From assembly GCA_963694535.1 (NCBI GenBank), contig CAVODE010000001.1, forward strand, positions 26,134 to 90,133: a DNA stretch of 64,000 nt, in the 5' to 3' direction. Shown one piece after another: positions 8,538 through 56,335 of the stretch (the first letter of the stretch is position 1; the number at the start of each line of letters is the position of its first letter). Source of the stretch: Dehalococcoidia bacterium (GTDB taxonomy: Bacteria; Chloroflexota; Dehalococcoidia; UBA2979). The position numbers and the translations under genes were made by a program. A model generated the notes under the pieces. The model made no database searches. It had not been told where the DNA came from and saw nothing but the letters and a program-made list of their open reading frames with translations.

Positions 8538-8627
8538 AATTCCATCTCCTTCAACTTAATTTTCTTATGCCCGAGATTAACATCTAATACTTGCTGCGCA
8601 TCCCTTTTATCGCGTTACGAACGATTT

Positions 8628-9716: not shown

Positions 9717-9907
9717 TTAAATTTCCCCTAACGTGTGACGCTTTAGTAGTAACTGAACTAAGCCGCATTATGTCAGGTAACGCAGTGATTTGGAAGAGGT
9801 TATATATTATGTTAGGGCCGCATTAGCTTCGTGATGCTTGGCGGTATCACTTCGGAACGAATTAAGTTTTTTTCTGTTGCTTTGTGATTGAGGGTTAGGA
9901 GAAAATA

Positions 9908-10963
9908 GTGCTTAGAATAGCGGTCGGTCTATATAGAGAATCTCAAGATGATTGGGAGAGCGCAGCGGCTTGGGCACAGGAAGTAGAGAAGCTAGGTATC
10001 GATTCGATATGGTCAGCTGAGACTTGGGGAATTGACGGCATAACGCCCCTAGCGAGAATCGCGTCAAGCACCACCTCAATTCGACTGGGCACAGGAATTT
10101 TGCAAATAGGCGCTAGAACTCCTGCTGCGTTAGCAATGACTGCTCTCGGCATGCAATCAATCTCAAACGATCGTTTTTTACTTGGTTTGGGAGTAAGTGG
10201 CGTTGCTATAGTCGAGGGATGGCATGGAGTTCCGTTTGAAAGACCGGTCACTCGGACAAAAGAGACTATCGAGATTATCAAGATGATCGCTGCAGGTGAG
10301 CGATTGGAGTATTCAGGCTCTTTGTACAAATTGCCCTTGCCCGGTGGCGAAGGTCGAGCAATCAAGCCGTCAGCAAAAGCCAGAAACGTACCCATTTGGC
10401 TTGCCTCTCTAGGTCCCCAGAATTTGCGAATCACCGGAGCACTGGCGGATGGCTGGATCGGGACATCATTTATGCCGGAAACAGCGAATGTTTTTTTTGA
10501 TCCCATGAGTGAAGCCGCGGTCAAAGTCGGTCGAAGCTTAGATGATATAGAGAAGATGGTCCCGGTTGCGCTGGAGTTGACAGAGGATGTGGAAGGCGCG
10601 ACCAAAGCCCACGCAGAAGGTTACGCATTCACCTTTGGTGCCATGGGTACCAAAGCTAACAATTTTTACAATAATGCCTGGGCACGACAGGGGTTTGCTG
10701 ACGAAGTTAAGGAAATTCAGCGATTGTGGTTGAGTGGTGAGCGTGAAACAGCAAAAAGTCGTGTACCACTGGAAATAGCTACTCGCAGCAACTTAATTGG
10801 TACGACTGACTTAATTATGGATCGTTTGAGAGTTTATAGGGACGCGGGGCTCGATATTCTTCGGGTAGATGTTCGGACGGATGGAGGCTTCGCAGAGAGA
10901 CTTTCGCACCTTGGTATTTTAATGGATATGGTTAAATCGATTAACAGTGAAGAGTCACTCTAG
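9908..10963 (+). CDS. LLM-class F420/flavin-dependent oxidoreductase (second paralog)
   Basis: 351 aa luciferase-like monooxygenase family pattern. Divergent from the Ldh_2 gene. Confidence 0.7.
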   Translation: MLRIAVGLYRESQDDWESAAAWAQEVEKLGIDSIWSAETWGIDGITPLARIASSTTSIRLGTGILQIGARTPAALAMTALGMQSISNDRFLLGLGVSGVAIVEGWHGVPFERPVTRTKETIEIIKMIAAGERLEYSGSLYKLPLPGGEGRAIKPSAKARNVPIWLASLGPQNLRITGALADGWIGTSFMPETANVFFDPMSEAAVKVGRSLDDIEKMVPVALELTEDVEGATKAHAEGYAFTFGAMGTKANNFYNNAWARQGFADEVKEIQRLWLSGERETAKSRVPLEIATRSNLIGTTDLIMDRLRVYRDAGLDILRVDVRTDGGFAERLSHLGILMDMVKSINSEESL

Positions 10964-12100
10964 TTGTATTGGGTGATCCGCTAGTATGGCTACAGATTTT
11001 TCCGTGTGTTGAACTTGGCCTTTGCGCTTGAGTTCAGTAGCCTCATCATATTGATCGACGTTCTCCACAAGCGCATTGAGTAGGTCTACCAAATATTCCG
11101 TGTCACGGAAACTTACGGTTTCGGGCACGATTTTTTGATTTGGACCCGCGTTGTGCCAAGCTCCAAGTGAAACACAAAGTGCTCCAGTATCGAGTCCTAA
11201 TCGAAAGAATGCAGTTGCCTCAGTACTTCCGGCATCCATCAGAAGGCGTTGGTATCTAAAATTTGTTTTTTGTGAGAGATTCGAAGCAATATGCTCCATC
11301 CAAGTTGTGACTTTAGGGGTAAATATGGATCCGGCATCACCCACTCTTATAATAGGACCACCACCTTGAATTGCTCTGCCGCCTGCTCCAGAAGATGTTT
11401 CAATAGCAATAACTATGGCGTCAGCCGGTAAAAGTGAGCTTTTAGTTGCGGCGCTAGCCCCCATGAGGCCGATCTCCTCGGCTCGAGTGAAAAGTCCAGT
11501 AAAACTGTAGGGAGATGATGTTTCAGAGAGTTTTTTTAGTGTTTGTAAGATACTCACGACACCTATGAGATCGTCACATTGGCGGGCCAGTATCTTAGGG
11601 TCAGAGCCATTCGAAATTTCAAAAGCGGTGACGTCCCAGAGAAGCAAATCCCCAACCTCGAGTTGAACTCCAGGTTCAGACAGAACAGTTGCGCCCTGTA
11701 TTCTTTGCCGAGGGGACGTGCCCTCGGTCATAATCTCTTGGATCTGTGCCTTACCTATTGCTGCAATTGAGACATCCTGTGAGGCAATTCGATACACGCA
11801 TAAGTATTCAGATTTGCCGTATTCAGCTGACAATCCGCCTCGAAACTCACAGATTGCGTGATTGTTGTTTACTTCCGTTACGATGAATCCTGGATGGTCT
11901 GTGTGGGCGGTAATAAATAGCGGTCTTCGCCCGACAGATGGTGATTCATCTCCGGAATAGGTGATGTAGCTGTTCCCGGCAGAATCCTGCTGAAATTTCA
12001 AATTATGCCGTGCGGCGAACTGAGCCAAGGCACTGTGAATTGCGTGTTCTTTCAGCGCAATTGTCGGTATGGTCAGAATATCTTCAAGTAGTTGTTTCAT
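10955..12100 (-). CDS. M42-like (FrvX/CelM family) aminopeptidase
   Basis: 381 aa. Metal-ligand-like blocks (AHTDHPGF, EEIGLMGA). Confidence 0.55.
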   Translation of the reverse strand: MKQLLEDILTIPTIALKEHAIHSALAQFAARHNLKFQQDSAGNSYITYSGDESPSVGRRPLFITAHTDHPGFIVTEVNNNHAICEFRGGLSAEYGKSEYLCVYRIASQDVSIAAIGKAQIQEIMTEGTSPRQRIQGATVLSEPGVQLEVGDLLLWDVTAFEISNGSDPKILARQCDDLIGVVSILQTLKKLSETSSPYSFTGLFTRAEEIGLMGASAATKSSLLPADAIVIAIETSSGAGGRAIQGGGPIIRVGDAGSIFTPKVTTWMEHIASNLSQKTNFRYQRLLMDAGSTEATAFFRLGLDTGALCVSLGAWHNAGPNQKIVPETVSFRDTEYLVDLLNALVENVDQYDEATELKRKGQVQHTEKSVAILADHPIQLE

Positions 12101-12223
12101 TGTTATTGATCCCAGTATGACTGCATAGAGATTAATTCTAGGCTAGCCTATCTATTACATGGGTTTTGATAAGAAGTATCTGTGTTTTCAATATATCCAG
12201 TTGCGTAATAGGGAAGAGATTTC

Positions 12224-13585
12224 ATGGTTAAAGTTTCAATATCGGGCGATGAGACTGAGAGGGCTAGTTTGTACAATTGGCCCACTGCCAGCAGACCTGC
12301 CCCAGTTTCACGTAAGGTGCGACGTAAGCATCGAAGAGTCAATTCACACCCTCTAACTCCGATCACGCTCGAGCTTACTGGATTTGAATCGGGTGGTCGA
12401 GCCGTTGGTCGAGCAGAAGATGGGCGAGTTGTTTTTGTTGAATTCGGCATACCTGGTGAACGAGTAGTTGCCGAAATTACTGACGAATACCCGAATTATA
12501 TAGAGGCCACAGCAGTGATGGTTATAGATTCCTCTTCTGACCGTATAACCGCACGTTGCGAGTACTTTGGTCGATGTGGCGGTTGTCAGCTACAACATAT
12601 TCAATACGACCGACAATTGGAGCTAAAAACCGAAGTTGTTCGGGATGCGCTCCGTCGGGTGGCTCACTTGGAGCAATCTGTGATTGATGACTGTGTAAGA
12701 GACATGTGGGGCATGGATGATCCGTGGGAATATAGAAATCACATGCGATTTACTGTGAGAAGAAGCGGTGACGTAGGCCAGATGCAGAGAGGTACGCATC
12801 GGTTTTTTCGAATAAATGAATGTAAGATTGCCCTCCCTGATGTAAATGAGATTCTGGCACTGTCACAGGAACGCACAAAAAACACTCACCAGCTTGCTGT
12901 TCGAGTTGGTCAAGCTACTGGCGATCGGTTAATTCAGCCAGAACTTCAGTGGAGACCTGGCAGAAGGAGCGGACGCCCTAATAGTGGTCAGGATTACTAC
13001 AACGAAGTGCTGACAGTACCGGTTTCCGAATCAATAGATACCACTGGCAAAATTGAAGGAAAATACAGAGTTTCAGGACCTGCTTTTTTTCAAGTGAATA
13101 CCTTGCAAGCTGAACGCTTAGCTGGATTGGTGATAGAACGCACACTCGAAATCGCCCCAAAAATGGTAATAGATGCTTATTCGGGGGTAGGTACTTTTTC
13201 GGTATTACTGGCTCCACTAGTCGACGAAATGATCGCGATCGAAGAGTCCAAAGGGGCAAACTCAGATGCACGGTTTAATCTACAAGCTAATCAGAACGTC
13301 AAGCGAGTGACCGCAAAAGTTGAAGACGCGCTAGAAGAACTTGAAACAGCACCCGACGTAATTATCATTGATCCACCTCGTGCAGGAATTTTACCAAGTG
13401 TGATTGACGCAATTATTCAGTCGAAAGTCTCTAGGGTTATATATGTGTCCTGTGATCCACAAACACTCGCAAGAGATTTGAAAATTTTTACGGATGCGGG
13501 ATTTCGTATAAACGAGATTCAACCTATTGATATGTTTCCGCAAACCCAGCATATAGAATGCGTAACCACACTTACTCGAGGCTAG
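12224..13585 (+). CDS. rlmD: 23S rRNA (uracil-5-)-methyltransferase RumA/RlmD family (TRAM domain, 4Fe-4S Cys cluster, SAM-dependent MTase)
   Basis: TRAM-like N-terminus, Cys cluster CEYFGRCGGCQLQH, C-terminal MTase motifs (DAYSGVGTFS; IIDPPRAG). The true start may be downstream of the annotated ATG. Confidence 0.8.
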   Translation: MVKVSISGDETERASLYNWPTASRPAPVSRKVRRKHRRVNSHPLTPITLELTGFESGGRAVGRAEDGRVVFVEFGIPGERVVAEITDEYPNYIEATAVMVIDSSSDRITARCEYFGRCGGCQLQHIQYDRQLELKTEVVRDALRRVAHLEQSVIDDCVRDMWGMDDPWEYRNHMRFTVRRSGDVGQMQRGTHRFFRINECKIALPDVNEILALSQERTKNTHQLAVRVGQATGDRLIQPELQWRPGRRSGRPNSGQDYYNEVLTVPVSESIDTTGKIEGKYRVSGPAFFQVNTLQAERLAGLVIERTLEIAPKMVIDAYSGVGTFSVLLAPLVDEMIAIEESKGANSDARFNLQANQNVKRVTAKVEDALEELETAPDVIIIDPPRAGILPSVIDAIIQSKVSRVIYVSCDPQTLARDLKIFTDAGFRINEIQPIDMFPQTQHIECVTTLTRG

Positions 13586-13587
13586 GG

Positions 13588-14274
13588 ATGAGTCAGGTAA
13601 TTTTGGCGTCATCGTCACCCCGACGAAAAGAATTACTGGGTACGATTATTACAGAATTTGCGAGTTTCTCACCCGATGTAGATGAGAGCACAGATGACTC
13701 AACTTCTCCATACGACGTGTCGGGATTACTGGCTGTCAGGAAAGCACGCACGGCAGTGACGGCTCATATTCCATTTGATTATTTGATTGCTTCAGACACG
13801 GTTGTGATTTCTGAAGGAGAGATTTTGGGCAAACCACATGACAGACTTCACGCCCAAGAAATGCTGATGCAATTGAGAGATAAGACTCACGAAGTCAGCA
13901 CTTCGGTGGCTGTCGTTTCAGTTGAATTGGGGACGAGTAAATTAGTAATAAGTCTTGTAAATAACCTTTCAAGAGTTACGATGCGACCTTATTCTGCGGC
14001 AGAGATAGCTAGTTTTTTAGATCGTGGCGAAGCTGACGACAAAGCCGGTGCTTATGCAATTCAAGACTTGGAGTTCCATCCCGTAAGTAAGTGCGAGGGA
14101 TGTATATGTGCAGTCATGGGATTACCCGTTCAAGATGTAGTTTTACAACTTACGTTGGTGGGTTTGGATCGAGCATCTATTTTGGCGCCTACTAGGATTT
14201 ACGATCGCTGTAAAAGTTGTTTGCGAGGCAACTTTACTATAGAGCCTAGTAATTTGGATGACATCTCTTTCTGA
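13588..14274 (+). CDS. maf: Maf-like nucleoside triphosphate pyrophosphatase
   Basis: N-terminal ILASSSPRRKELL signature. Start chosen at the ATG 3 nt after the rlmD stop; the ORF track gives 13558. Confidence 0.8.
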   Translation: MSQVILASSSPRRKELLGTIITEFASFSPDVDESTDDSTSPYDVSGLLAVRKARTAVTAHIPFDYLIASDTVVISEGEILGKPHDRLHAQEMLMQLRDKTHEVSTSVAVVSVELGTSKLVISLVNNLSRVTMRPYSAAEIASFLDRGEADDKAGAYAIQDLEFHPVSKCEGCICAVMGLPVQDVVLQLTLVGLDRASILAPTRIYDRCKSCLRGNFTIEPSNLDDISF

Positions 14275-15253: not shown

Positions 15254-18200
15254 ATGGAATCAATTTTCGGAATTTCTCTTGACACATACTTGGTAGCGGT
15301 AGGCACTATGGCCGTGCTGATTGTGCTGATTCTTTTATACATTGCCATACGAAATCCCTTACTCGTGAGGCTCGGTGCACGAAACTTTGCGAGGAGAAAA
15401 TCCCAAACGGTATTGATTGTGATCGGTTTAATGTTGTCGACGCTGATCATTAGTGCGGCGCTTGTAACAGGTGACACAGTAGGGCAGTCCATCACGAACC
15501 GAATATATACGTCACTCGGAAGCATTGATATTATTATCGATCCTGACGAGGAAAAGAGCGAAGGCATACGCTCAATTAAAGCTTCTGATATCTCCGCTAT
15601 ACGTGAGAGCTTCCGAGATGATGAAAGAATTGACGGGATAGCTGCACTGCTGCAAATAGATGTGCCTGCTGCAAATCAGCAGGCACGATTATCTGACCCA
15701 AGGGCCTATTTAATAGGTGTGATACCGGACGAAATTAGAAATTTCAAGCAATTGGAACTTTTGGATGGTGAGCTGCTTGACCCTGAAATACTTAATTCAG
15801 GTGGTGTTGTGGTGTCTGAAAGGCTAGCTGAATCTATTAATTTAAACTCAGGCGATTTGGTGACACTGTTCGTTGAGAATAATCCATACGAGTTTTCAGT
15901 AGCAGCAATTGTGAAAGATAACGGGCTCACAGCAAAGGACCAAGCGGGACCAGGATCCAAGCCAGGTGGCGGCGTAATGATGTTGCTAGATGATGCTCTC
16001 ACTTTGTCGCGTTGGGAAGGTCCAAATATCTTGGGGATATCAGTAGCAGGAGGTGTCCGCAACGATTTGGATCTTGTTGACACTGTTAGTGGAGAAGTCG
16101 AGGAGCTCATAGGATCATCTAATCTGTCCGTCGAGGTAGTTGAGAACAAGAAGGATTTGGTTGCTATTGGCTCACTTGTAGGGTCTGTTTTTGTGTCATT
16201 CTTTATTATTTTTGGACTTTTCTCGATTGCAGCCGGATTAATGCTGATCTTCCTAACCTTTGTCATGCTCGCTGCCGAGAGGCGGTCAGAGATGGGTATG
16301 GCTCGAGCGGTTGGTATGAAACGCCTTCATCTAACGCAGGCGTTTATCGCTGAAGGCATGCTGTACAACGTGGGCTCTGCACTGGTGGGGGCAGCTCTTG
16401 GTGTTCTGGTAGCATGGCTGATGATTACGTTGCTCGGATTCATTTTTGCAAGTTTTGGGACAGAAATCGTACTGAATGTGAATCCTAGAGCACTTGCGCT
16501 TGCCTATTTAGTAGGCATTGTTTTGACGTTTGTGACTGTTGCATTTTCCTCTTGGCGCGCAGCGAATTTGAATATCGTGCGATCTATCCGTGATATTCCG
16601 GAGCCTGATCTATTGCAGAGCAATCTTGGAGGTATTCGTGAGCTCTTTAGAAGTACGTGGTCTGTAGCTTGGACAGTAATTTGGTCAGTAATTGGTTTCG
16701 CGTTAACGATTGCCTTGGTGGGTTTTGTGATACCTGCAGTGCAGGTTTTCTCTATTTTCGGTGGTCAAATTGGTGCGGCAATTGGGGTGACTATTGGCCT
16801 CTCAGCCGTAATTCTCATCGTTTATTTTATTAGGAAACTGTTCAATTACGCACATCAAAAACTTTCACTCGTGCGGCTTATATCTAGACCGGTAAACAAA
16901 TTGAATATCTGGTCTAATGCGCATCGATCTGGTGCTGGATGGGCCGTTTGGATGATTATTTTCGGATCACTTGGTGTGTACCTAGGTGGTTGGGGTGATA
17001 ACGCAGCCATTCCATCATGGATAGGACCACAGTTGTGGTCATACTCAGGAGGGACCACTTTAATAATATTTTCACTTGGTATTCTCGCTGTTTATTTTGG
17101 GGCACCACCGCGACTTTCTTTCACTTCGGTTGGTTTGATAGTTGTATGGCTGTGGTTACTGCCACTTCCTTTTAGTGTTCTGCCAGGTTTTCCTGCGACT
17201 GCCAACGGCTGGACTGACCCGATACAGGGAGTTTTCTCATTATTTGGTCTTGGTCACGAACCAATCGCAGGTAATTTTGAAATGTTTTTTGTGTCCGGAG
17301 TTGCTGTAACGGCAGCATCAATTTTCGTCGTAGTCTATAACGCTACCCTTTTACTAGCCCCTCTCAATCTTGCAAGAAATGTGTTTAAAGGAGTGATGCC
17401 AGCCGTTCGGACCGCTATAGCTTATCCGTTGGCTAGCCGTTTCCGAACAGCTATGACTTTGGCAATGTTTACGTTGGTGGTGTTCGGCTTAGTAGTCCTG
17501 TCAATTTTGAATCATAATTTCAGTCAGGTGTTTGCGGGTGAGGAAGCTCAGGCAGGATTTGATATAGCGATTGAAGGAAATCCGTCGAATCGGATTAAAA
17601 ATATTGATCTAGCTTTAGTGAACTCTGAATTTATGGATAAGAAACTACTAGGAGAAGATATTTCAAGTATATCGTCTCTACGATCTGCTACCGGTCTTTT
17701 GACTGGTAGCGATGGAACAGACACGCGTGACGGATTGTACAGTATCCAGGGTATGGACCAGAGTTTCATCTCGACGAACGAGCTTAAATTGCTGACTCGG
17801 GCAAGTGATTATGAGTCTGATGAAGCCGTATTTGTGGCGCTAGCTGCCTCAAGTCGCTATGCGATTATTGATGAATCTCGTCTTAAGGATGGATCCAACG
17901 CATTTGGTGAGCCTACGAGTGAAAATTCTTTTAGAATCGAGCGCACACTGTCGGATATTGACGCTTCTGGCTGGGAGGCAATCACGGTAGCGGTTATGGA
18001 TCCATTCACCGGATTGGAACAAGAATTTGAGATTATTGGCATTATATCTAATACATCTACGCAGGTTAGGCGTGAGTGGAGCGCATTATTTATTTCAGAG
18101 CAATCAGTAGATGATGTGTTCAGTGGAGGATATAAGGACATGTTTTATGTGGTAGCCACGGAGGACACTGATGTCATTGAGCTCGCGAATGCTATAGAGA

Positions 18201-31417: not shown

Positions 31418-31671
31418 TAATTTTCTCCATTAGGCTGATATCCTTTTGTAGAGGATAGGTTAATGCAAAAAACTGATGAACCGTGCTGGTTGAATATCGA
31501 CCCAGGTGGTTCAGTGCTTCACCTTGAATCATGTCCGTTTGTTCAGGAGTATACAGGTGCAGAGAAGACAGCTGGAGCTTGGGTGTACTTTGCAAACCAG
31601 GAGGCAGCTGGTGCCGTTTATCCGGCATTAGATATCTGCGCAAATTGTTTTCTCCCTGAAAGATGCTCTTC

Positions 31672-32211
31672 TTATGATTCTGAATTAATCGCATGATCAA
31701 TTAATTGCCGTAACTGTTTTTCACTGATTGTACCGGCATGCCTATCAAGGACCGTAGCTCCATCAGATGACACTGTCGATATTCTTGGGAATCCAAGAAT
31801 TCCAAGTCGTTTGGCGAGCGTATTGTCTTCCTTATTCGCAATATCAAGTATGACGAAATTCATTAAGGTTTGTGTTTCAAATCGTAAACCGTTCACGACG
31901 GCCCGTACGCTTTTGCAGCTGGGTCAGCCAACAGCAGAATTAAATACCAGTGTGGGTAGACCATTTTGTGGGATGTACGCTCCCGTTCGGTCGATTTCCG
32001 TGTCAGACATGGTGAAAGTTTTTGTAACTAGCACTGCTTCGGTTGTTGTAGTTACAACACCTTGTGTAGTCCCAACTTTCGGTGTTAGCGATTCGGAATT
32101 CTTCGTTGATTTTTCTATCGAACCTTCTTCGGTTTGACAGGATAGTGACAGGATTATCAATGTAAAAAGGACTACGGCAGATCGAGCGAAATGTATTTTT
32201 CTCTGATTCAC
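31672..32211 (-). CDS. Secreted (signal peptide, possibly lipoprotein) thioredoxin-fold SELENOPROTEIN. In-frame TGA at 31924..31926 is read as Sec in active site G-U-P-S-C-K. The ORF track splits it into 31924..32211 and 31672..31896.
   Basis: The two track ORFs are in the same frame, separated by a single TGA plus 9 sense codons. The joined translation ...LPTLVFNSAVG-U-PSCKSVRAVVNGLRF...FVILDIANKEDNTLAKRLGILGFPRISTVSSDGATVLDRHAGTISEKQLRQLIDHAINSES aligns to the thioredoxin fold (LVDFWAEW-CGPC-K ... GIRGIPTLLLFKNG...). The TGA occupies exactly the N-terminal active-site Cys position. The downstream piece has only a GTG start and no RBS of its own. Confidence 0.7.
31886..31904 (-). promoter_or_regulatory. 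Candidate SECIS hairpin downstream of the Sec-TGA of the thioredoxin-like selenoprotein
   Basis: mRNA GGGCCGU[CGUGA]ACGGUUU: a 7-bp stem (4 Watson-Crick, 3 G-U) with a 5-nt loop, starting 22 nt after the UGA. Found by eye; the fold was not computed. Confidence 0.3.
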
Positions 32212-32247
32212 TTTTTACCTCTCATGCTTGAAATTTTACTAATGGGT

Positions 32248-33558
32248 TTACCCACAAATCCCTCGGACTGTTGCATGCATTATTTGCATTCCTAAATGTA
32301 AATTATCAATTGACAAGCGCTCATCATGTCCGTGAACTCGTCCTGCCTCACTGGGACCACTCAGGAATGGACTGAATCCATATGCAGTCATTCCCTTGCG
32401 CCTAAACACTCGCGAATCAGTGAACCCAGTTGAGACACCAGGCAGGATTAAGGCATCTTCAACTAAGTTACGAGCCTCTCGTGCCATCACATCCCAAAGT
32501 TCTGTATTCGCCGGAGAAGCTGGAGTTGATGATTGAAATACCCGTTCAATTTTGATGCGATCATCGTTAATTACGTCGACCATGTCACCGACGAATTTAT
32601 CAGGGTCATATCCTGGTACGAGTCGGCAATCAAGAGTGGCTTCAGCATCTGAGGGGATAACATTGTGTTTGACTCCCGAGCGGAGAGTTGTCAATGCGAT
32701 AGAATTTTTTTGCATCGAGTCTATTCTTGGGTTATCTGCTGCCAAAGCCTTGAGAACTTCATCAGTAGGTTTGTCTTTCAAAATGCCTGCTTCATAAATA
32801 GCTTCGAAGTAATTTCTAACTTCGGGAGTTATATCAAATGGTCGCTCCCAATCTAGAATTTTGTTTACCGCACGAATCAAGTGGTCTGCTGCATTGTCGC
32901 TATGCGGTACAGATCCATGGCCTGGAGTGCCCTCAACTGTCAATTTTAACCAGAGAGGGCCCTTCTCTGAGACACCTATATTGAAAGCATCACGCTCGAT
33001 GCCTAGTACTTCTGTACTGCCGCTCCCACCTTCATTTATTACATATTCACAATCAAGAAGCTCAGGGTGTTCGCGGTCAAGAAACTCGACGCCATAGGCT
33101 GAGCCTGCTTCCTCATCGGCAACTGCCATGAAAACCAAGTCACGCTTGAGCGGTAAATTAAGTCGCTTATGTAAAAGAAATGTAACGAGTTCGACGATGC
33201 CAGTGCCTTTCATATCTTGAGCACCACGGCCCCAGATATAGCCATCATGGACTTCACCACCGAGTGGGTCGACTGTCCAGTTTTCTATTTCAAAAGGAAC
33301 GACGTCAGTGTGGTTAAGTAGAATTAGAGATTTCCCTCGGCTTCCATCTCCTTTGAGTGTGGCTACTAGCGTGGATCGATTGTCACCGGGATCGTAAAGC
33401 TGGTAAGGAATTCCTTCAGCGTCAAGAATTTTTCCTATGAAATCGCAGGCAATGGTTTCGTTACCTGGAGGATTCACCGTATTGACGCGTATATATGACG
33501 AAAGCCATTCAGTTGCTTGTTCGGTCCACTCGTTCCAGTTTATCTCGGTGTCTGTCAT
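32248..33558 (-). CDS. M20 family metallopeptidase (ArgE/DapE/CPG2-like)
   Basis: 436 aa. M20 blocks HTDVVP, ADEEAGS, EGGSGS, and the dimerisation domain. Confidence 0.8.
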   Translation of the reverse strand: MTDTEINWNEWTEQATEWLSSYIRVNTVNPPGNETIACDFIGKILDAEGIPYQLYDPGDNRSTLVATLKGDGSRGKSLILLNHTDVVPFEIENWTVDPLGGEVHDGYIWGRGAQDMKGTGIVELVTFLLHKRLNLPLKRDLVFMAVADEEAGSAYGVEFLDREHPELLDCEYVINEGGSGSTEVLGIERDAFNIGVSEKGPLWLKLTVEGTPGHGSVPHSDNAADHLIRAVNKILDWERPFDITPEVRNYFEAIYEAGILKDKPTDEVLKALAADNPRIDSMQKNSIALTTLRSGVKHNVIPSDAEATLDCRLVPGYDPDKFVGDMVDVINDDRIKIERVFQSSTPASPANTELWDVMAREARNLVEDALILPGVSTGFTDSRVFRRKGMTAYGFSPFLSGPSEAGRVHGHDERLSIDNLHLGMQIMHATVRGICG

Positions 33559-33649: not shown

Positions 33650-34336
33650 TTATGTCTTTTTGAAGGGAGGGGATGCATTTTCAGGCACCGATATCTCAAA
33701 TGTATTTAGCACGATAGAAATTGCTGAGTAATAGCCGATCAAGGTTGCAATCTCCATTATTCCGGCTTCACCTAAAGCTTCAGTGAGCGCCTTATAGGTA
33801 TCCTCTTGAATACGTTTAGTTTCGATCATTTGTATGCAAAACTCATAAACTAATGCCTCAGAGCCACCAAGATCTGGTTTTTCACCCAGCTGAATTGCAG
33901 TGACTACTTCCTGTTTAATGCCGGCTTCGAGGGCCATTCTGGCGTGCGCCCAGAACTCATATTGAGCCTGCCAGTGTGCTCCAATGGTGATAATTGCAAG
34001 CTCGAGCAGCGGGCGAGGAATGCTGGTGCCGTAACGCAGACGTGCTCCTAGTTCTTGCAGTGCTATACCAATATTGGGCGAGTACAACATTGAGTTAAAG
34101 GGGCCGCCGAGTGACCCATCTGATTGGATCATATTTGCGCCTCTTGGTCCAGTAGTGAGCGCCTCATAAGTTTGTTTTTGATCTGCGGTTAGAAGTTCTG
34201 GTGTGAGTCGTGTTAGACGTGACATATAGGTTAAAGCCTTTCTTTGGACGCAATGGGTGTGAAACACCCTCACAGTAGGATATCGGTAACCCACGAAGTT
34301 TTGTTGTATTGACCTGGATATGTTTATTATGCTCAC
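33650..34336 (-). CDS. Carboxymuconolactone decarboxylase (CMD/AhpD-like) family protein
   Basis: CMD-family all-alpha pattern. The true start is likely the internal ATG (MSRLTRLTPELL, about 34225). Confidence 0.55.
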   Translation of the reverse strand: MSIINISRSIQQNFVGYRYPTVRVFHTHCVQRKALTYMSRLTRLTPELLTADQKQTYEALTTGPRGANMIQSDGSLGGPFNSMLYSPNIGIALQELGARLRYGTSIPRPLLELAIITIGAHWQAQYEFWAHARMALEAGIKQEVVTAIQLGEKPDLGGSEALVYEFCIQMIETKRIQEDTYKALTEALGEAGIMEIATLIGYYSAISIVLNTFEISVPENASPPFKKT

Positions 34337-35214
34337 TATCTATGAATAGATATCAGATGTTGATTCTCGCGATCGGAATTTTCGCCTGTAGTTGGGCTGG
34401 CCCATTAATTAGGCTGGCAGATGAGGCTTCTTTTCTTTATATTGCCACTGCACGCCTTGTAATTGCCGCGCCAATAATGATCGTAGTTTCACTTCTAGGG
34501 CCTAAAGATTCGTATAGGACTCTGAAAATCGGTGTGATTTGTTTAATGGTTTTATCTGGAATTGCTTTAGCAGCTCACTTTGCGTTTTGGGTTTCAAGCA
34601 TTTCTAAAACTTCGATTTTAGCCTCAGTCGCATTGGTTGCAATGAGTCCACTATTTGCCGCTTTAGGTGGCTGGATGTTTCTCGGCGAGCGACCGAACGC
34701 GAGAGTATTGAGTGGTATCCTAGTGAGCTTTTGCGGAGCATCTGCCCTGCTCATCTCCGATTTTAAAGATGTCGGTAGCTTGTCAGGGGACATCTATGCG
34801 TTCATCGGTGCCATACTTGCTTCGATTTATCTATTGATTGGGCGTTATGTCAGGCAGCGTGTAGAGATGTCAGTTTATGCAGCAGTCGTCTATTCGGTTG
34901 GAGCTATTGTTCTACTCATTACCTTCTTGAGTCGAGAAACTTTAACCTTTAATTATGAAGTAAATACGTATATCTTTGTTCTTTTACTCGCTCTTGTCCC
35001 ACAGTTAATCGGCCATAACGCGATAAATTATTCCTTGGGATTTGCGCCGGCTGCCATTGTTGCATTGGCGATACTTGGTGAACCTGTAGGATCATCTTTG
35101 ATAGCAGCGCTGTTTCTTGATGAAATTCCTTCAATTTTTGAGATTGTTGTCGGGGGAGTAATTCTATCGGGTGTTTATATTGGTGTCCGAGGCGGTGCGA
35201 TATCATCGAGCTAG
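34309..35214 (+). CDS. EamA/DMT family transporter
   Basis: 301 aa, 10 TM helices, two EamA-like repeats. Confidence 0.7.
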   Translation: MTWICLLCSLSMNRYQMLILAIGIFACSWAGPLIRLADEASFLYIATARLVIAAPIMIVVSLLGPKDSYRTLKIGVICLMVLSGIALAAHFAFWVSSISKTSILASVALVAMSPLFAALGGWMFLGERPNARVLSGILVSFCGASALLISDFKDVGSLSGDIYAFIGAILASIYLLIGRYVRQRVEMSVYAAVVYSVGAIVLLITFLSRETLTFNYEVNTYIFVLLLALVPQLIGHNAINYSLGFAPAAIVALAILGEPVGSSLIAALFLDEIPSIFEIVVGGVILSGVYIGVRGGAISSS

Positions 35215-36449
35215 CCAAGCTCGACTTCAGGCCTTTCTTCCCAGACAACCTGATTACTAATTAAATCTGCAAGCTGACCTTCATTCATTCCCAGCAGTTC
35301 AGATAAAACTTCGCGACTGTGCTCTCCCATATCAGGCGCCGTTCCTTTGATTCCACCAGGTGTCCGCGACATCTTTATTGGCGTATTTGCTAGAGGCGTG
35401 GGTCCAAAAGTTTTGTGTTCTATTTCAGGGAGCATCTCGCGGGCCGCGACCTGAGGCATAGCGGACGTTTCTGCGATGTTATTGAGTGGTCCGCAAGGGA
35501 TTCCGTACTTTTGTAAAGCGTTAACCCAGTCGGATGTATTTCTCTGTGCAAAAGCTAGATTCAGTAGTGGCTCGAGTTCACTGTGGTTCCGACTCCGAGC
35601 AGCAGCAGTTTCAAAACGTGGATCATCGATAAGTTCCGGGATATCAAGTTCGACACAGAGAAGTGCCCATTGATTTGAGATGCCCCAAGAGAGGGCAATG
35701 ACAATGTAGCCATCTTTTGTGGGGAATGCTTGGAAAGGCACAGCAGTAGGATGTCGAGTACCAATGCGTCCAGGGATTTCCTTCGTTATGTGATATCGCA
35801 TAAATTCATTTGTTTGCACCGCAATTTGACAGTCAAGCATTGAAATATCTATTAGTTGGCCTTCACCAGACTTATGACGCTCGTGTATTGCAGCTAAAAC
35901 TCCAACTGCGCAATATAGCCCAGCCGCTACGTCCCCGACAGAAAATCCAACTCGCGCTGGCTCTGAATCCTCATATCCCGTAATGGACATAACTCCGCCA
36001 GCCCCCTGCACAATTACGTCGAGGGCCGGCTTATCCGAAAGTGGGCCTGTCTGACCGTATCCGGATATGGCAGCGTATATGAGTCCTGGATTTAGGTCTT
36101 TGAGGTCGGCATACCCGAGACCAAGGCGGCTCATTGCACCAGGTGTAAAGTTTTCCACCACGACGTCAACTTCTTTCACAAGATCCTGGAAAATACTTTT
36201 TCCTGATTCAGTAGTGAGATCAACCGCGATCGATCTCTTGCCTCGATTTATAGAAAAGAAGTAGCCGGATTCTCCATCGATCATCGGCATAGTGGTACGA
36301 GCGACATCTCCGTAGGGAGGCCTCTCCAATTTGATAACATCTGCTCCGAGGTCACCCAGAGTCTGAGTACACATCGGCCCGGATAAAATCCAGGTGAGGT
36401 CAAGGATACGAATTCCTTTCAGCGGACCAGAAGTTGGTAATGCGGGCAA
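35211..36449 (-). CDS. CaiB/BaiF family-III CoA-transferase
   Basis: 412 aa. N-terminal GIRILDLTWILSGP...LGDLGADVIKLE signature of family-III CoA-transferases. Confidence 0.85.
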   Translation of the reverse strand: MPALPTSGPLKGIRILDLTWILSGPMCTQTLGDLGADVIKLERPPYGDVARTTMPMIDGESGYFFSINRGKRSIAVDLTTESGKSIFQDLVKEVDVVVENFTPGAMSRLGLGYADLKDLNPGLIYAAISGYGQTGPLSDKPALDVIVQGAGGVMSITGYEDSEPARVGFSVGDVAAGLYCAVGVLAAIHERHKSGEGQLIDISMLDCQIAVQTNEFMRYHITKEIPGRIGTRHPTAVPFQAFPTKDGYIVIALSWGISNQWALLCVELDIPELIDDPRFETAAARSRNHSELEPLLNLAFAQRNTSDWVNALQKYGIPCGPLNNIAETSAMPQVAAREMLPEIEHKTFGPTPLANTPIKMSRTPGGIKGTAPDMGEHSREVLSELLGMNEGQLADLISNQVVWEERPEVELG

Positions 36450-36471: not shown

Positions 36472-37008
36472 TTAGTCGATTAGCGCTGTTAGCAATTGTT
36501 CGATAACAGAGTTAGCTCTTTGATGCATTTCTTCATCTGTTTGGTCTTGCATTGGGTGAGGTACAAAGACCCTGTTGACGTCAGGCATGCCCAATGAGGT
36601 CGATTGAGCTACCGCAGCATCGACAAAACCATCTGTGGCCACAAATACTGCGGGGATTCCATTATTTTCAAACCAAACTGTGTCGTGCACACTGCACGTT
36701 GTACAAGATCCTCAGTCAGCGACTGCCTCGATCACAAAGTTACACTCATTCAGTATTTGTCTTCTGAGTTCGTAAGGCGCAGGTTTAGCAAAAGTAGGCT
36801 TCATGTATCTTTGTATTTTTACATTTGGCATTTGATTACTAATCAGTATTTCGACCCGGTCTAAGAACTTATTTCCGCGAGGCTTAGAGATATCAAGGAG
36901 ACCAACGGTTCCAGTGATATGCTCAGGTCTTTTAGTTCTAGTTCGCTTGATTGGTTCTCTTTCGTCGGTCGGATCCAGAATTGTCGTGGGTAAATCTTGT
37001 GGTGACAT
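36472..37008 (-). CDS. UGSC-family SELENOPROTEIN. In-frame TGA at 36712..36714 is read as Sec in motif U-G-S-C. The ORF track splits it into 36712..37092 and 36472..36690.
   Basis: The two track ORFs share a frame and are separated by one TGA plus 6 sense codons. The joined translation is ...NECNFVIEAVAD-U-GSCTTCSVHDTVWFENNGIPAVFVATDGF... The Sec-Gly-Ser-Cys motif is the defining motif of the UGSC selenoprotein family reported from marine metagenomes (recalled, not searched). The downstream piece has only a GTG start and no RBS. Start assigned to ATG 37006..37008, preceded by AGAAGG 8 nt upstream; an alternative ATG at 37090..37092 overlaps the upstream gene. Confidence 0.75.
36684..36698 (-). 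promoter_or_regulatory. Candidate SECIS hairpin downstream of the UGSC Sec-TGA
   Basis: mRNA CGUGCA[GUG]UGCACG: a perfect 6-bp stem starting 16 nt after the UGA, or a 5-bp stem with AGUGU loop. An outer 3-bp extension UGU...ACA (36679..36705) is possible. Found by eye. Confidence 0.35.
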
Positions 37009-37030
37009 TCTACAAACCTTCTTTCTGACT

Positions 37031-38620
37031 TCAGTCATTAATTTTTCGGCTGGTTGGGATGGACCCAGTGGGTCCGCTTGCCCATCCTTCAAGTACGGCC
37101 GAAAACTTACCGGCTTCTGCTCCAGCCACCATTATATGGATATTTTCGTTGCTGCGAAATTTAGGGATCATTTTATTTAGTTCTTCTTCGGACGCATTAG
37201 CAAATTGGTTGGGATCTAGTCCAGCTCCTATTTCTTCATTTCTTAACAGCGATCTCACAGATCGTTGCGTAATTTTCTGGATTCGGTCTCTAATTTGTTC
37301 TTTTGACCAACCATCCTCCCAGATTGTGGCCACATGTTCTGGACATAGTACGAGCATCGAATCACCATAATTGTGAGAGTTAGGATGATGGTTGGCTTCC
37401 ATTCGAACACCGAGGGAGCCTACTAATGATTTAGCGGTTCTCGACGTTTGATCGATTGCCACTCCGATACCGGTCATTGCGAAAGCAGTCACTACCGATT
37501 CATCTTTATTGAAGCCTCGTTCCACGTGGAGAGGATCCCATGGACTGATTTCTTCCCACTCCGCAAAGCAGGTTGAATACCGCATAGGCGATCCCTGAGT
37601 AGATCGTTCAGTCTCGCCTGGCCTTTGGCCACCGACATTTCTGAGTATCAGTCTCACCGCACGCCCGATTGCAGCGTTAGCTCTGTTCCCTTGGCCTAGA
37701 GCGTTCAGTCCCATATTCATTCCGATTCGTTGTCGAATCGGCCCATTGACCACCAGCACAGGAGTGGCACCCATAGTGGTAGCGCCGACCCCGTGTGCAT
37801 TGAATTCTTCATTACACACAGCTTCTACCGCTGCAATAACTACTGGGAGATATTCAGGTAGGCAGCCTGCCATTACCGAATTTATTGCTATTTTTTCAAC
37901 GGTCACCGGAGCCAAGTTAGGAGGCACAATTGCCACAGTATCTTGTGAATCTCTTTTTGTTCCATCTAGCATTCGAATGACACGCTCAGGGGTGGGGGGG
38001 ATGACAGGCAGTCCATCGGTCAGGCCTTGTTGATACATAAATTCATGGACATCGTCGTGAAGTGCAACTTCGACCCTGCGCGCCCTGATTGGCGATCCTT
38101 CTGACTCGGCTTTCAGTCGTTCAAAAATCCCAGGCTCCAGAGATTTTGAGCCACATCCAGGTCTTGATTCAGGATATATATCCCAGTCAATTTCCGGCAT
38201 AGTACTTTTATTTATCTTGGCTAAGTCCTCGAATAAACTTTTCCAGTCGTCTCGTCCAAAACCCACAAATGTGCGAGTCGGAGTTCCATCAGGAGTTGCT
38301 AGGACTAAAGTGGGGACAGTTTCGATTTCATATGCGTACGAGGTATTTAGCGTGGACTCATCCAGAAAAGGTAGTGTCATCGAATATTCCTCTGTGAGGA
38401 CCAGGTCATCATCTCCATTTTGCGCCAACGCAACGATATCGACTCCGTCACTGAATTCTTCGAATGCCTTTTGCAGTAGGGGCATGGAAATTCTTGTTGT
38501 TGGACAATCTTCCTTAACAAAACAAAGCAGGGTTGGCCTTCCCGAAGGAAAGGAGTAAGCATTTTGTGTTCTCGTAGCACCAGCCGTTGGCAAAGAAAAT
38601 GAAGGCAGTTGGGTGGGCAT
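37031..38620 (-). CDS. Fusion protein: N-terminal thioredoxin-fold (AhpC/TSA-like, single Cys in DCPTT) plus ~380-aa C-terminal domain of unknown function
   Basis: 529 aa. The N-terminal ~140 aa resembles a peroxiredoxin/TlpA-like fold (LLCFVKEDCPTT...VPTLVLATPDG). The C-terminal domain matches nothing I can name. Translationally coupled to the UGSC selenoprotein gene downstream. Confidence 0.5.
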   Translation of the reverse strand: MPTQLPSFSLPTAGATRTQNAYSFPSGRPTLLCFVKEDCPTTRISMPLLQKAFEEFSDGVDIVALAQNGDDDLVLTEEYSMTLPFLDESTLNTSYAYEIETVPTLVLATPDGTPTRTFVGFGRDDWKSLFEDLAKINKSTMPEIDWDIYPESRPGCGSKSLEPGIFERLKAESEGSPIRARRVEVALHDDVHEFMYQQGLTDGLPVIPPTPERVIRMLDGTKRDSQDTVAIVPPNLAPVTVEKIAINSVMAGCLPEYLPVVIAAVEAVCNEEFNAHGVGATTMGATPVLVVNGPIRQRIGMNMGLNALGQGNRANAAIGRAVRLILRNVGGQRPGETERSTQGSPMRYSTCFAEWEEISPWDPLHVERGFNKDESVVTAFAMTGIGVAIDQTSRTAKSLVGSLGVRMEANHHPNSHNYGDSMLVLCPEHVATIWEDGWSKEQIRDRIQKITQRSVRSLLRNEEIGAGLDPNQFANASEEELNKMIPKFRSNENIHIMVAGAEAGKFSAVLEGWASGPTGSIPTSRKIND

Positions 38621-43179: not shown

Positions 43180-43998
43180 GTGCGCCTGTGGCGACGAATA
43201 AAAGAAAAAAGGTTGGAGATACTTATGAATAGATATGATGGAATGAGCGCGTTGGTGACCGGTGCTGGGTCAGGGATTGGTCGTGCGATGGCGCTCCGAT
43301 TAGCAGATGAAGGCTGCGCAGTTCTTTGTGCAGATATCGATCAGGACGGCACTGAGAGCACTGCTGCAAAAGTACTTGAGCATGGTGGTAAATCAGCCGC
43401 AGTGGTATTGGACGTGACAGATTCTGATGCAGTGAAGGATGCATTGGAAAGAACAATCTCTGAATTCGGATCTATTGATGTACTTATGAATAATGCTGGA
43501 GTAGGTGGTGGTGCAGGCTGGGATCAGACGATTGCAGTGAACCTTAGTGGGGTCTACTACGGACTACTGCATGGTTGCAAGATGATGGCCGAGAGAGGCG
43601 GTGGTTCGATCGTGAACACAGCGTCAGTGGCTGGCCTCAATGGGTTAGTTGGGGGTTCGGGTGCAGTAAAACCTGCCGACATTAATCCCAGCGATGGTCC
43701 CGGGGCGTACACGGCAGCTAAGCATGGGGTCGTGGGTCTTACTCGCCAATTTGCAGTGATATACGGTAAGCAGAATGTCCGAGTGAACGCATTGTGCCCA
43801 GGTTACATTTTTACACCGATGACGGCAGGTATGCGTGATCGTGAAGGCGGCCAAGAATTTTTAGAGAGCTTGCATCCGATGGGGCGGCTAGGTGAGCCGG
43901 AGGAAATAGCCTCCGCTGCAGCTTTCCTCGCAAGTTCAGACGCATCTTTTGTGACCGGAGTTGCTCTGCCTATTGATGGCGGATACACGGCTCGATAG
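43180..43998 (+). CDS. SDR family oxidoreductase
   Basis: [10 protein letters not shown] Rossmann motif, NNAG, YTAAK catalytic motif. Confidence 0.85.
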
Positions 43999-44020
43999 CC
44001 GTTGGACACGGGACGTCGGT

Positions 44021-46441
44021 ATGTCACATATAGGCCGTAATTCAGACAAGAGACCGTTGTCGGAACTGCGGGTGCTCGAAATATCTGACGGAGTTGCTGG
44101 CGCGTACGCGGGTCGATTGCTTGGTGATCTTGGCGCTCGTGTCATTAAAGTAGAAGACGCGACTGGTGTTGGGCTGAGAGCACTTGGACCTTTCCCACTC
44201 ACTGCACCAGGCGATACAGAGGCCGGCGGATTACATCTGGCGCTCGACGTGGGGAAAGAATCAATTGTTATCGATTTTCAGGAAACCGTTGATGTTGAGC
44301 GGTTAGATAATCTTGTTTCAGCTGTTGATATTGTGCTTCTATCAAGCTCGACTAAGTTTGATAGAGCTTTGTTAGATCAACAAGTCGCTCTCAGAGATAA
44401 AAATCAAGAATTAGTGTTAGGTGTTCATACGCCTTTTGGTACGGACGGCCCCTATTCGGACAGATCTTCGAGCGAAATAGTTGACTATGCAATGGGCGGC
44501 TACATGTATTTCTCAGGCGATCCAAAACGGGAGCCATTGCTGGCCCCTGGATTCCAGGGTGAATTTCATGCGGGTATGCAACTCGCATTTGGGGTTATGA
44601 CAGGCGCATATCACTCGTTAAAGACAGGCAGGGGGCAGACGGTCGAGGTCTCAACTTTTGAAAGCATGCTCAATGCACATTCCTGGCTGACAAGTTCATG
44701 GACTCACGAGGGAGTAATTCAATCTAGAAAAGATACATGGATCACAAAATGTTTAGATGGACATGTATTTTGGATGCCTCGTCCGGATCCTCAATTTTTT
44801 GCAATGATTGAGCGACCAGATTTAATTGATGACCCTCGACTTGATTCAATGCTTGAATTCCGAGATGCTGTTCCAGAATATCGAGCAGCTTTTGCTGACT
44901 GGGCAAAAAACAAGAAGAAGCAGGATATTTATCATGAGGCTCAAGCGCTTAGAATTGCGGTCACTCCGGTTAATGATGCTGAGGACTTACGAAATAGCCC
45001 GCAACTTCGAGCCAGAGAATTTTGGCGAACAGTCGATTCACCTGTCGGCAAAATCGAGATACCTGGCCCGCCGTGGAATTTCAGCGACGTGGAACTGGGA
45101 CCAGCATCGCGCGCTCCTCATCTAGGGGAGCACCAGGATTTAGAACTAGAGGACCGCCTGCCCAGAGTTTATAGTCAGTCTGTGAGCTCCCTTGAGCTGC
45201 CTTTGTCAGGGGTACGTGTTCTTGAGGTTACTGCTAACTGGGCAGGCCCTTTAACTGGAAGACACCTTGGTGATTTGGGTGCAGATGTCATAAAGATTGA
45301 AGTTGCGAAGAAGCCAGCTACTAGGGCTGTGACCTATCCCGGACAACAGAGTTGGGACACTGCTCATAACCGTGCCGCCTATTTCAATCTACTGAACCGA
45401 AATAAACGTGATCTTGGAGTCGATTTATCTGATCCAGCTGGTCGCGATTTATTTTTAGACCTCGTAGAGAAATCTGATATCGTGCTCGAAAACAACAGTG
45501 CGCGGGTGTTTCCAAGTCTTGGACTTGACTATGAGAATCTTCGTGATCGCAATGAGGAACTAATCATGTGTTCGATGTCAGGCATGGGACTAGGTGGCCC
45601 AGAAATGCAATATTTGGCATATGGCTCAAATATTGAGGCTTCGAGCGGATTTGTTGCAAGGCTTGGATATTCCGAAGATTCTCTTTTTTCATCGGGCTCT
45701 TTTTACGCTGATCCCATCTGCGGCACACATGGGGCGATCGGTCTTGTGGCATCACTTTTTTCTCGAGATAGTGGAGCTAATGACGGAGGAGGTCGTTTCA
45801 TTGATATGTCGCTTCAAGAATCTGGAATTATGTTCAGTACAGAATCAATTATGAACCTTCAGATCCGAAATGAAGTCATGGTGCCAGTGGCCAATAAGTC
45901 AAGTAGATGGGCGCCTCAGGGTGTATATGCGACGGTCGGTGATGATTGTTGGATTTCAATTGCATGTAAAACGGATACGGATTGGGTCAACTTATGTCGG
46001 ATTATTTTTGAAGATGAGCTGAGTGCGGTTTACATCTTTAAATTTGCTGACATATCTGTACGTGAAGAATTTCATGAAGAAATTGACGAATTGATCTCAT
46101 CGTGGGCGGCAGGACTTAATCATAATGAAGCAACTAAAATTCTCCAAGACGGAGGAATAAGCGCAGGGCCTGTCTTGCAGAATTGGGAAATAGTGTCAGA
46201 CCCGCATTTATTCGCCCGAGATTACTTTGTTGACATTGTGCATCCAGATGTCGGACATTACCGATGGGATGGATTTCCCTGGAAATTTAGTGAAACTAGA
46301 GCTCAAATCCGACGACCTGCACCACTTTTTGGAGAACATACGATAGAAATTTGTGAAGAGATTGCAGGCTTGAGTCAGGATGAAATTGAACAACTCAAAC
46401 AATCAGGAGTTGTACAGGATAAGTTGGAACCGGTTACTTGA
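44021..46441 (+). CDS. Tandem-fused double family-III (CaiB/BaiF) CoA-transferase
   Basis: Two full CoA-transferase III modules in one ORF (RVLEISDGVAGAYAGRLLGDLGARVIKVE ... and RVLEVTANWAGPLTGRHLGDLGADVIKIE ...). Start set to the ATG after the SDR stop; the track start at 43961 overlaps the SDR. Confidence 0.75.
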   Translation: MSHIGRNSDKRPLSELRVLEISDGVAGAYAGRLLGDLGARVIKVEDATGVGLRALGPFPLTAPGDTEAGGLHLALDVGKESIVIDFQETVDVERLDNLVSAVDIVLLSSSTKFDRALLDQQVALRDKNQELVLGVHTPFGTDGPYSDRSSSEIVDYAMGGYMYFSGDPKREPLLAPGFQGEFHAGMQLAFGVMTGAYHSLKTGRGQTVEVSTFESMLNAHSWLTSSWTHEGVIQSRKDTWITKCLDGHVFWMPRPDPQFFAMIERPDLIDDPRLDSMLEFRDAVPEYRAAFADWAKNKKKQDIYHEAQALRIAVTPVNDAEDLRNSPQLRAREFWRTVDSPVGKIEIPGPPWNFSDVELGPASRAPHLGEHQDLELEDRLPRVYSQSVSSLELPLSGVRVLEVTANWAGPLTGRHLGDLGADVIKIEVAKKPATRAVTYPGQQSWDTAHNRAAYFNLLNRNKRDLGVDLSDPAGRDLFLDLVEKSDIVLENNSARVFPSLGLDYENLRDRNEELIMCSMSGMGLGGPEMQYLAYGSNIEASSGFVARLGYSEDSLFSSGSFYADPICGTHGAIGLVASLFSRDSGANDGGGRFIDMSLQESGIMFSTESIMNLQIRNEVMVPVANKSSRWAPQGVYATVGDDCWISIACKTDTDWVNLCRIIFEDELSAVYIFKFADISVREEFHEEIDELISSWAAGLNHNEATKILQDGGISAGPVLQNWEIVSDPHLFARDYFVDIVHPDVGHYRWDGFPWKFSETRAQIRRPAPLFGEHTIEICEEIAGLSQDEIEQLKQSGVVQDKLEPVT

Positions 46442-56204: not shown

Positions 56205-56335
56205 TGCCTACCTACTTACTGAATACTCATATATTTCTAATCTTAGTATCTTTAGTCTTTCGCTGAAATAGAAGCAATTTCTTGAAGCCAGATTAGACTT
56301 TCTTGTAGTATAGTTAAAACATCAGTAGAAAATTC

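Follow-up and report, generated by a model that had tools for sequence, protein, structure and literature searches.

Proteins in which selenocysteine (Sec, U) replaces the first cysteine of a thioredoxin-type CxxC motif are classic, well-documented selenoproteins of bacteria, UxxC thioredoxin-like proteins being among the most abundant classes of marine selenoproteins (PMC2398784). Exported UxxC thioredoxin-like selenoproteins have also been catalogued, and a 2026 inventory lists thioredoxin (PF00085), a thiol:disulfide interchange protein (PF13098), redoxin, DsbA-like and DsbG-like proteins and several named thioredoxin-like families, with the Sec-containing thioredoxin of PF00085 given in its table as experimentally validated (PMC13188914). 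We analysed a stretch of 64,000 nucleotides (hereafter the window) from contig CAVODE010000001.1 of a Dehalococcoidia bacterium of the UBA2979 lineage, the minus strand of which carries at 31672..32211 what is very probably a single Sec-encoding gene. Its product is predicted to be a 179-residue lipoprotein precursor that would act as an extracytoplasmic thiol-disulfide reductase, a role that we regard as reasonably likely; selenium incorporation, export and lipidation are all predictions from the sequence. A first-pass annotation of this DNA, which had proposed a secreted thioredoxin-fold selenoprotein at this place, described the substitution of Sec for Cys at the nucleophilic position as unusual. 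In view of the two surveys cited above (PMC2398784, PMC13188914), this qualification has to be withdrawn, since such proteins are among the commonest marine selenoproteins and exported ones are already on record.

Read on the minus strand, the frame extends from a GTG codon (32211..32209) to a TAA codon (31674..31672) and comprises 179 sense codons, with the TGA of codon 96 (31926..31924) as its sole internal stop. The two open reading frames (ORFs) listed at this locus, 31924..32211 (95 aa) and 31672..31896 (74 aa), lie in one frame and are separated by this TGA and nine further codons (P-S-C-K-S-V-R-A-V). The joined product reads MNQRKIHFARSAVVLFTLIILSLSC...LVFNSAVG-U-PSC-KSVRAVVNGLR...GFPRISTV...INSES, so that both the shared frame and the context of the TGA had been correctly read in the first-pass annotation. 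The GTG at 31896, listed as the start of the C-terminal ORF, is located nine codons past the TGA and within the loop of the hairpin described below, and this start is thus an artefact of the ORF listing.

The TGA is present at the identical codon, followed by x-x-C, in all 26 homologous gene copies that were read, which belong to four clades and extend down to ~31% identity. Clade A comprises the window gene and five relatives (L006-9, L022), those from a metagenome scan being 77-81% identical to the window protein and carrying the motif U-L-[ST]-C, clade B (L001-5, L010-13) shares ~52% identity with it and displays U-M-S-C, and clade C (L014-17) shares 30-34%, with the context ...VFVDSIW-U-MSC-A; twelve loci in these three clades were contributed by that scan. 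The fourth, high-GC clade consists of seven paralogs, all with the TGA, which are arranged in tandem on two near-complete contigs of 2.35 Mb (L025, four Sec paralogs, 9335..13626) and 2.65 Mb (L026, three, 6774..10543) and harbor the motifs U-P-A-C, U-P-F-C, U-P-S-C and U-Q-F-C. The same split arrangement was found in three GTDB genomes, Chloroflexota RS381, a metagenome-assembled genome (MAG) of Dehalococcoidaceae and Dehalococcoidia UBA2979. A word-indexed protein search returned no Cys homolog and only N-terminal fragments, in 13 clusters that every time end in ...LVFNSAVG; on the corresponding contigs, the TGA stands at that codon and is followed in frame by M-S-C-K and the conserved C-terminal half. 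The index of the assembly collection lists the N-terminal fragment in 44 blocks; on the 24 contigs that were read, the callers had always split the gene (95 + 63 residues). Independent assembly of the locus with the same TGA excludes a sequencing error, and the expectation that ORF callers would miss the gene proved right in every assembly examined.

Comparison of the window gene with its clade A relatives gave ratios of nonsynonymous to synonymous polymorphism (pN/pS) of 0.25-0.42 before the TGA, 0.15-0.19 after the GTG and 0.11-0.51 in the nine-codon bridge. Both flanks and the bridge are under purifying selection, and as the bridge would be non-coding if the two ORFs were separate, its conservation counts for one gene. 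The continuity of the gene across the TGA, as first proposed, is therefore supported by the constancy of the codon, by the selection acting on the bridge and by a Pfam match that spans the TGA.

An exhaustive HMMER and profile search recovered about 23 full-length Cys homologs of 150-210 residues, in which C-P-[NSTLPF]-C or C-F-F-C occurs precisely where the window protein has U-P-S-C, in agreement with the idea that Cys homologs with CxxC at the TGA position would be found. They share with the window protein its whole architecture, that is, a lipoprotein signal, a linker, the motif AVLV...D.TGAY[IL]P.NG.PT and a thioredoxin domain, and PGAP calls one of them, encoded on a contig of 493 kb, a 'TlpA family protein disulfide reductase [Dehalococcoidia bacterium]'; the contigs that carry the Cys homologs recovered first do not extend far enough to show neighbouring genes. 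The same searches also yielded dozens of further split fragments, so that the Sec forms appear at least as common as the Cys forms. In a rough neighbour-joining tree, the Cys forms fall among several Sec groups (the percent identities from that run, apparently inflated by gap handling, were not used).

Matches to the Pfam families Thioredoxin_2 and Thioredoxin cover residues 82-170 and straddle the TGA. Searched against the PDB, the family profile found 3gnj as its best match (E=3.5e-7), followed by the periplasmic Bacteroides TrxP structures 3hyp and 3hxs, and the alignment places the UGA codon on the first Cys of CxxC and P142 on the cis-proline. An AlphaFold model was built with X at the Sec position and 40 database homologs. 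It reached a mean predicted local distance difference test score (pLDDT) of 80, with values above 90 over the thioredoxin domain and below 50 over most of the linker (residues 26-58), rising toward the C-terminal end of the latter; a model from the single sequence was useless (pLDDT 32) and was discarded. The modelled topology is beta(87-92), alpha(98-113), beta(118-123), alpha(127-136), beta(143-147), beta(154-159) and alpha(164-178). Sec96 is positioned immediately before the first helix and P142 immediately before the third strand, and the model thereby presents the thioredoxin arrangement of a CxxC-type motif at a helix N-terminus and a cis-Pro loop ahead of beta-3. The thioredoxin fold, the location of the TGA at the first active-site Cys and the cis-Pro region, all three already recognised in the first-pass annotation, are borne out by these alignments, by the Cys homologs and by the invariance of P142 in the family alignment (A3).

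A hairpin that is a candidate selenocysteine insertion sequence (SECIS) starts 20 nt after the UGA, and its apical loop starts 26 nt after it. The window RNA reads G-G-G-C-C-G-U [C-G-U-G-A] A-C-G-G-U-U-U (stem 31904..31898 / 31892..31886), which is the 7-bp stem with a CGUGA loop that had been pointed out from the sequence. Recognition by SelB of bacterial SECIS elements requires this 26-nt spacing and the G-U of the apical loop (E. coli fdhF; bSECISearch criteria). The same hairpin, in the same register to the UGA, was found in clades A and B and in the high-GC clade, while in clade C it takes a variant form that includes a bulged A and has GUU as its loop. Over 16 distinct sequences and seven stem pairs, 97.3% of the cells pair, and three of the seven pairs are compensatory (G-C/A-U/U-A at 24-40, C-G/U-G/G-U/A-U/U-A at 25-39, and G-C to A-U at 28-36). 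None of 500 shuffles matched the observed pairing or covariation score, and when the 3' partner was slid, pairing amounted to 14-49%. Within the loop, N-G-U-N-N, the G and U at positions 2 and 3 never vary. In the equivalent region of one Cys homolog the hairpin is not formed. A search of Rfam gave no match in the gene region.

Regarding the N-terminus, basic residues precede a hydrophobic stretch and the sequence LFTLIILSLSC, which ends at Cys25. The window protein contains a lipobox, defined by a PROSITE-type pattern, as do 68 of 74 N-termini of the family; most of the sequences that fail the pattern look truncated at the N-terminus. With the invariant Cys25, the lipobox leads us to predict a lipoprotein tethered outside the cytoplasmic membrane by a variable Ser/Thr-rich linker, which in some high-GC paralogs becomes a very long Pro/Thr/Ala-rich stretch. 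Of the earlier description as a secreted protein with a signal peptide, the N-terminal export signal stands, but the protein would be anchored in the membrane through Cys25 and not freely secreted.

In the mechanism that we propose, SelB carrying Sec-tRNA(Sec) would bind the hairpin at 31904..31886, with its invariant apical G-U, and deliver selenocysteine at the UGA (31926..31924). The precursor would be exported, lipidated on Cys25 and relieved of its signal peptide, leaving the thioredoxin-fold domain on a Ser/Thr-rich linker at the outer face of the cytoplasmic membrane. The U-P-S-C pair would then constitute a selenenylsulfide/selenol-thiol redox centre with Sec as the attacking nucleophile, and most likely reduce disulfides or oxidised thiols of extracytoplasmic substrates, as is the case for CcmG, ResA, TlpA and Etrx.

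The use of Sec by this organism is supported indirectly by a second gene and by the lineage to which it belongs. Another split selenoprotein gene occupies 36472..37035 (-), with a TGA at 36712..36714, 4.8 kb from the lipoprotein gene. Against the model NF041046 ('UGSC family (seleno)protein'), its joined product reaches 163 bits, for a cut-off of 125, and carries Sec within U-G-S-C. A short hairpin CGUGC[AGUGU]GCACG follows the UGA of this gene by ~13 nt, and in other assemblies the gene is split by callers into 98 + 72 residues. The relatives of the lipoprotein reside in Chloroflexota/Dehalococcoidia MAGs, and Dehalococcoidia MAGs with 46-49 selenoproteins are recorded in BSepDB among the richest bacteria (PMC13326102). 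A literature search for SAR202 together with selenoprotein or selenocysteine found nothing relevant. Two other in-frame TGA candidates on the minus strand of the window, 54875..54877 and 16327..16329, were dismissed, as they lie antisense within long plus-strand ORFs with Pfam matches.

Three other explanations of the locus were weighed. If 31672..32211 were a pseudogene, or comprised two small genes of their own, the N-terminal fragment would end at a true TGA stop, and the C-terminal piece would be separate or untranslated. The split is indeed what gene callers annotate in every assembly, and the codon immediately after the TGA is ATG in clades B and C; the window, however, offers no start codon before the GTG nine codons on, itself in the hairpin loop. 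The conserved bridge codons speak against separate genes, as does the fold, which needs beta-1, encoded before the TGA, and alpha-1, encoded after it, in one chain. Moreover, the Cys homologs are single uninterrupted proteins, and no nonsense mutation would be maintained at the same codon in lineages as divergent as ~31% identity, which makes this explanation extremely improbable. Reading of the UGA by other means than Sec, through near-cognate insertion of Trp or Cys or a local reassignment, could be invoked on the grounds that Sec machinery was not observed in the window or the related loci and that Sec insertion is deduced from sequence. Nevertheless, TGA is otherwise an ordinary stop in this genome, closing 10 of 45 long window ORFs and thus not reassigned globally, and the position of codon 96 is that of the catalytic Cys of CxxC, where Trp would be inactive. 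The hairpin, conserved at the usual bacterial SECIS distance with its invariant loop G-U in Sec forms and lacking in a Cys form, argues in the same direction, as do the member of a curated selenoprotein family 4.8 kb away and the related Dehalococcoidia that are documented Sec users (PMC13326102). We consider a non-Sec reading very unlikely. The protein could also be a genuine selenoprotein with another job, either a DsbA-like disulfide-forming oxidase or a factor handling Cu, Hg or Se akin to the partners of TlpA and Sco. The C-P-x-C of the Cys forms, which is also a DsbA pattern (CPHC), would fit this, as would the high-GC paralog array beside a MerR-family regulator, DUF3179 and two redoxin-like genes, and the failure to find a CcdA or DsbD donor near the gene. 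On the other hand, the fold is nearest to classic thioredoxins, without the DsbA helical insert, W-C-P-[ST]-C is also the CcmG/DsbE motif, and the weak NCBIfam matches of clade C are to the reductases StoA and DsbE. None of these last points is decisive; such a function is fairly unlikely.

Several observations weigh against a Sec-dependent extracytoplasmic reductase, the interpretation that we retain. The Pfam scores are marginal (23.9 bits for PF00085, cut-off 23.5; 26.6 for PF13098, gathering cut-off 27), and the reductase role is drawn only from the fold, the motif and the neighbouring genes, near which no CcdA or DsbD was seen. Pfam and NCBIfam scans (for the window, of ORFs of at least 200 aa) and tRNA scans, which covered the window and 14 related loci, detected no selA, selB, selD or tRNA-Sec, so that the case for Sec decoding by the organism is indirect. 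Taken for the window sequence alone, the thermodynamic significance of the hairpin is null (minimum free energy z-score 0.01), and comparative evidence was used for this reason; the covarying sequences are themselves mutually related. The invariant hairpin bases also fall in the conserved V-V-x-G codons, and part of the hairpin conservation is thus coding constraint. Such an entanglement of coding and RNA constraints is usual for bacterial SECIS elements.

The coordinates of the gene, of its elements and of its two most relevant neighbours are collected in the table below.

Features of the predicted selenoprotein gene and linked genes, in positions of the window
Feature	Position	Strand	Basis or remark
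Complete gene, very probably encoding a selenoprotein	31672..32211	-	GTG start, one in-frame UGA as Sec, TAA stop
Shine-Dalgarno-like GAGAGG	32218..32223	-	6 nt 5' of the GTG start, read from sequence
Predicted lipoprotein signal peptide, residues 1-24, and lipobox Cys25 (L-S-L-S-C)	32137..32211	-	PROSITE-type pattern; Cys25 invariant in alignment A3
Ser/Thr-rich linker, residues 26-58, weakly conserved	32038..32136	-	Variable in alignments A1 and A3; low pLDDT
Thioredoxin-fold domain, residues 59-179, including the family-specific N-terminal motif AVLV...D.TGAY[IL]P.NG.PT	31675..32037	-	
UGA codon 96, predicted to encode selenocysteine	31924..31926	-	TGA in 26/26 gene copies; Cys in ~23 full-length homologs
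Putative redox motif U-P-S-C, residues 96-99	31915..31926	-	Immediately N-terminal of helix 98-113
SECIS-like hairpin	31886..31904	-	7-bp stem, loop C-G-U-G-A 31897..31893; possible lower stem to 31883..31909
Pro142, equivalent of the thioredoxin cis-proline (G-F-P-R)	31786..31788	-	Invariant in A3; aligned to G-[VI]-P of solved thioredoxins
M20 peptidase gene	32248..33558	-	36 nt upstream of the GTG; Pfam, NCBIfam
EamA-family transporter gene	34309..35214	+	Steadiest linked neighbour of the lipoprotein family

Clades A and B share the order EamA transporter, CMD-like protein, M20 peptidase, selenoprotein gene, gamma-glutamyltransferase and DUF1932 dehydrogenase. In clade C and around the Cys forms, the M20 peptidase, the DUF1932 dehydrogenase and EamA are still nearby, with the M20 gene on the opposite strand. 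In the high-GC genomes, the genes around the paralogs code for EamA transporters and a MerR regulator, with DUF3179 and two redoxin/TlpA-like genes next to them, and the same MerR, DUF3179 and redoxin neighbours occur in a third high-GC lineage. Co-transcription with the M20 peptidase, which had been assumed at the outset, is plausible in the window, where the 36-nt gap between the M20 stop codon and the GTG contains no promoter-like or terminator-like site, but is not a feature that clade C or the Cys forms share. In E. coli, EamA exports cysteine. The association of EamA, gamma-glutamyltransferase and an M20 dipeptidase-type enzyme could, speculatively, connect the lipoprotein with small-thiol export or turnover. 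The genomes concerned, however, are all from a single bacterial class, and the synteny may reflect shared ancestry. A broader proposal would be that of an undescribed Sec lipoprotein family present throughout the Dehalococcoidia and overlooked because callers split its genes in all assemblies examined, with tandem arrays of three to four Sec paralogs in some lineages, some of them directly followed by an EamA-type gene, forming a cell-surface selenium redox system fed by exported small thiols and not by CcdA or DsbD. We regard it as unlikely, and offer it as a speculation.

Other elements of the window deserve mention in their own right. A conserved convergent ORF of 77 aa (31463..31696, +) overlaps the last 25 nt of the selenoprotein gene. 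It contains the motif W.N.D...H..C..VQEYTGAEKT.G.W...C..C, and no Pfam match is recorded for it. A 66-aa ORF in the equivalent position of clade B loci (L001 1158-1358, and L005) shares 42% identity with it across 55 residues (E=1e-14). The CMD/AhpD-like protein (33650..34336, -), which has a weak match to PF02627 and is conserved beside the M20 peptidase in clades A and B, bears neither CxxC nor CxxU, in contrast to the AhpD-like selenoprotein families. Directly upstream of the UGSC gene, a protein of 529 aa (37031..38620, -) matches AhpC/TSA, and weakly ResA/StoA, over its first ~120 residues, the remaining 400 being without a family match. A DsbA-like protein, possibly extracytoplasmic, is encoded at 3748..4455 (-) (Pfam Thioredoxin_4, E=7.6e-15). 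Further away, a thiamine pyrophosphate (TPP) riboswitch (56331..56437, +; RF00059, 68.8 bits) is located upstream of an ABC transporter operon (56677..59270) coding for a permease, an NMT1/THI5-like binding protein and an ATPase, and an 826-aa protein (43961..46441, +) shows two family III CoA-transferase matches, apparently a tandem fusion. A CoA-transferase (35211..36449), two luciferase-like monooxygenases, PrpD, four short-chain dehydrogenases and two enoyl-CoA hydratases are also encoded. Taken together, these genes, with many short-chain dehydrogenases among them, fit a marine Dehalococcoidia of the SAR202 type.

The value of these results lies chiefly in annotation, where a systematic error is corrected. 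The gene and its relatives sit in public protein collections as meaningless pairs of fragments of 63-118 residues. Functional surveys therefore miss a genuine exported redox enzyme in each genome, and as many as four in some Dehalococcoidia. A lipoprotein subfamily is added to the catalogue of UxxC thioredoxin-like selenoproteins, and the view of marine Dehalococcoidia as heavy selenium users is supported, while the knowledge of Sec decoding and of thioredoxin chemistry is unchanged.

Compared with membrane-tethered proteins such as TlpA, ResA, StoA, CcmG/DsbE and the TrxP of Bacteroides, the window protein would likewise hold a thioredoxin-fold domain outside the cytoplasm, as its lipobox pattern suggests; the pneumococcal Etrx lipoproteins are comparable extracytoplasmic thioredoxin-like reductases. 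The Cys forms of the family resemble TlpA-type reductases in their W-C-P-x-C motif, consistent with the PGAP name given to one of them. Unlike TlpA and ResA, the window protein is modelled with a minimal thioredoxin topology, without the TlpA/ResA-type insertion, and has Sec for Cys. The NCBIfam models of TlpA, ResA, StoA and DsbE gave no hit with it, scores in the family for the last three being ~18-25 bits for cut-offs of 123-210 (for clade C, 20.7 vs 210 bits with StoA and 18.3 vs 123 bits with DsbE). With the UGSC family NF041046, represented by the neighbouring gene, the lipoprotein has in common the region, the UxxC motif and the splitting by callers, but it is unrelated to it and has no NF041046 hit.

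Closer parallels are found among the thioredoxin-like selenoproteins themselves. Like the PF13098 'thiol:disulfide interchange protein' and the DsbA-like and DsbG-like selenoproteins, the window protein would be an exported thioredoxin-fold UxxC oxidoreductase, although its PF13098 score remains just below the threshold of 27; the published representative of that class is WP_011366075.1. None of the curated thioredoxin-like selenoprotein models in NCBIfam (SaoT NF040730, HUIPC NF047660, VPGUxxT NF041383 and others) matched, and the only hit at E values up to 0.01 was to the thioredoxin equivalog TIGR01068, with 19.8 bits for the window protein vs a cut-off of 96.8. The 'Trx-like 1/2/3' proteins from the Global Ocean Sampling (GOS) and Sargasso Sea data share with the window family the thioredoxin fold, Sec at the N-terminal Cys of CxxC, a SECIS in the coding region just after the UGA, the existence of Cys homologs and a marine habitat. 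What distinguishes the window family from this UxxC 'Trx-like' set is its lipoprotein signal, its Ser/Thr or Pro/Thr linker and the motif D.TGAY[IL]P.NG.PT. Set beside these earlier sets, which were compared by description only, it represents a lipoprotein subfamily, new or at least uncurated, within the well-known UxxC kind.

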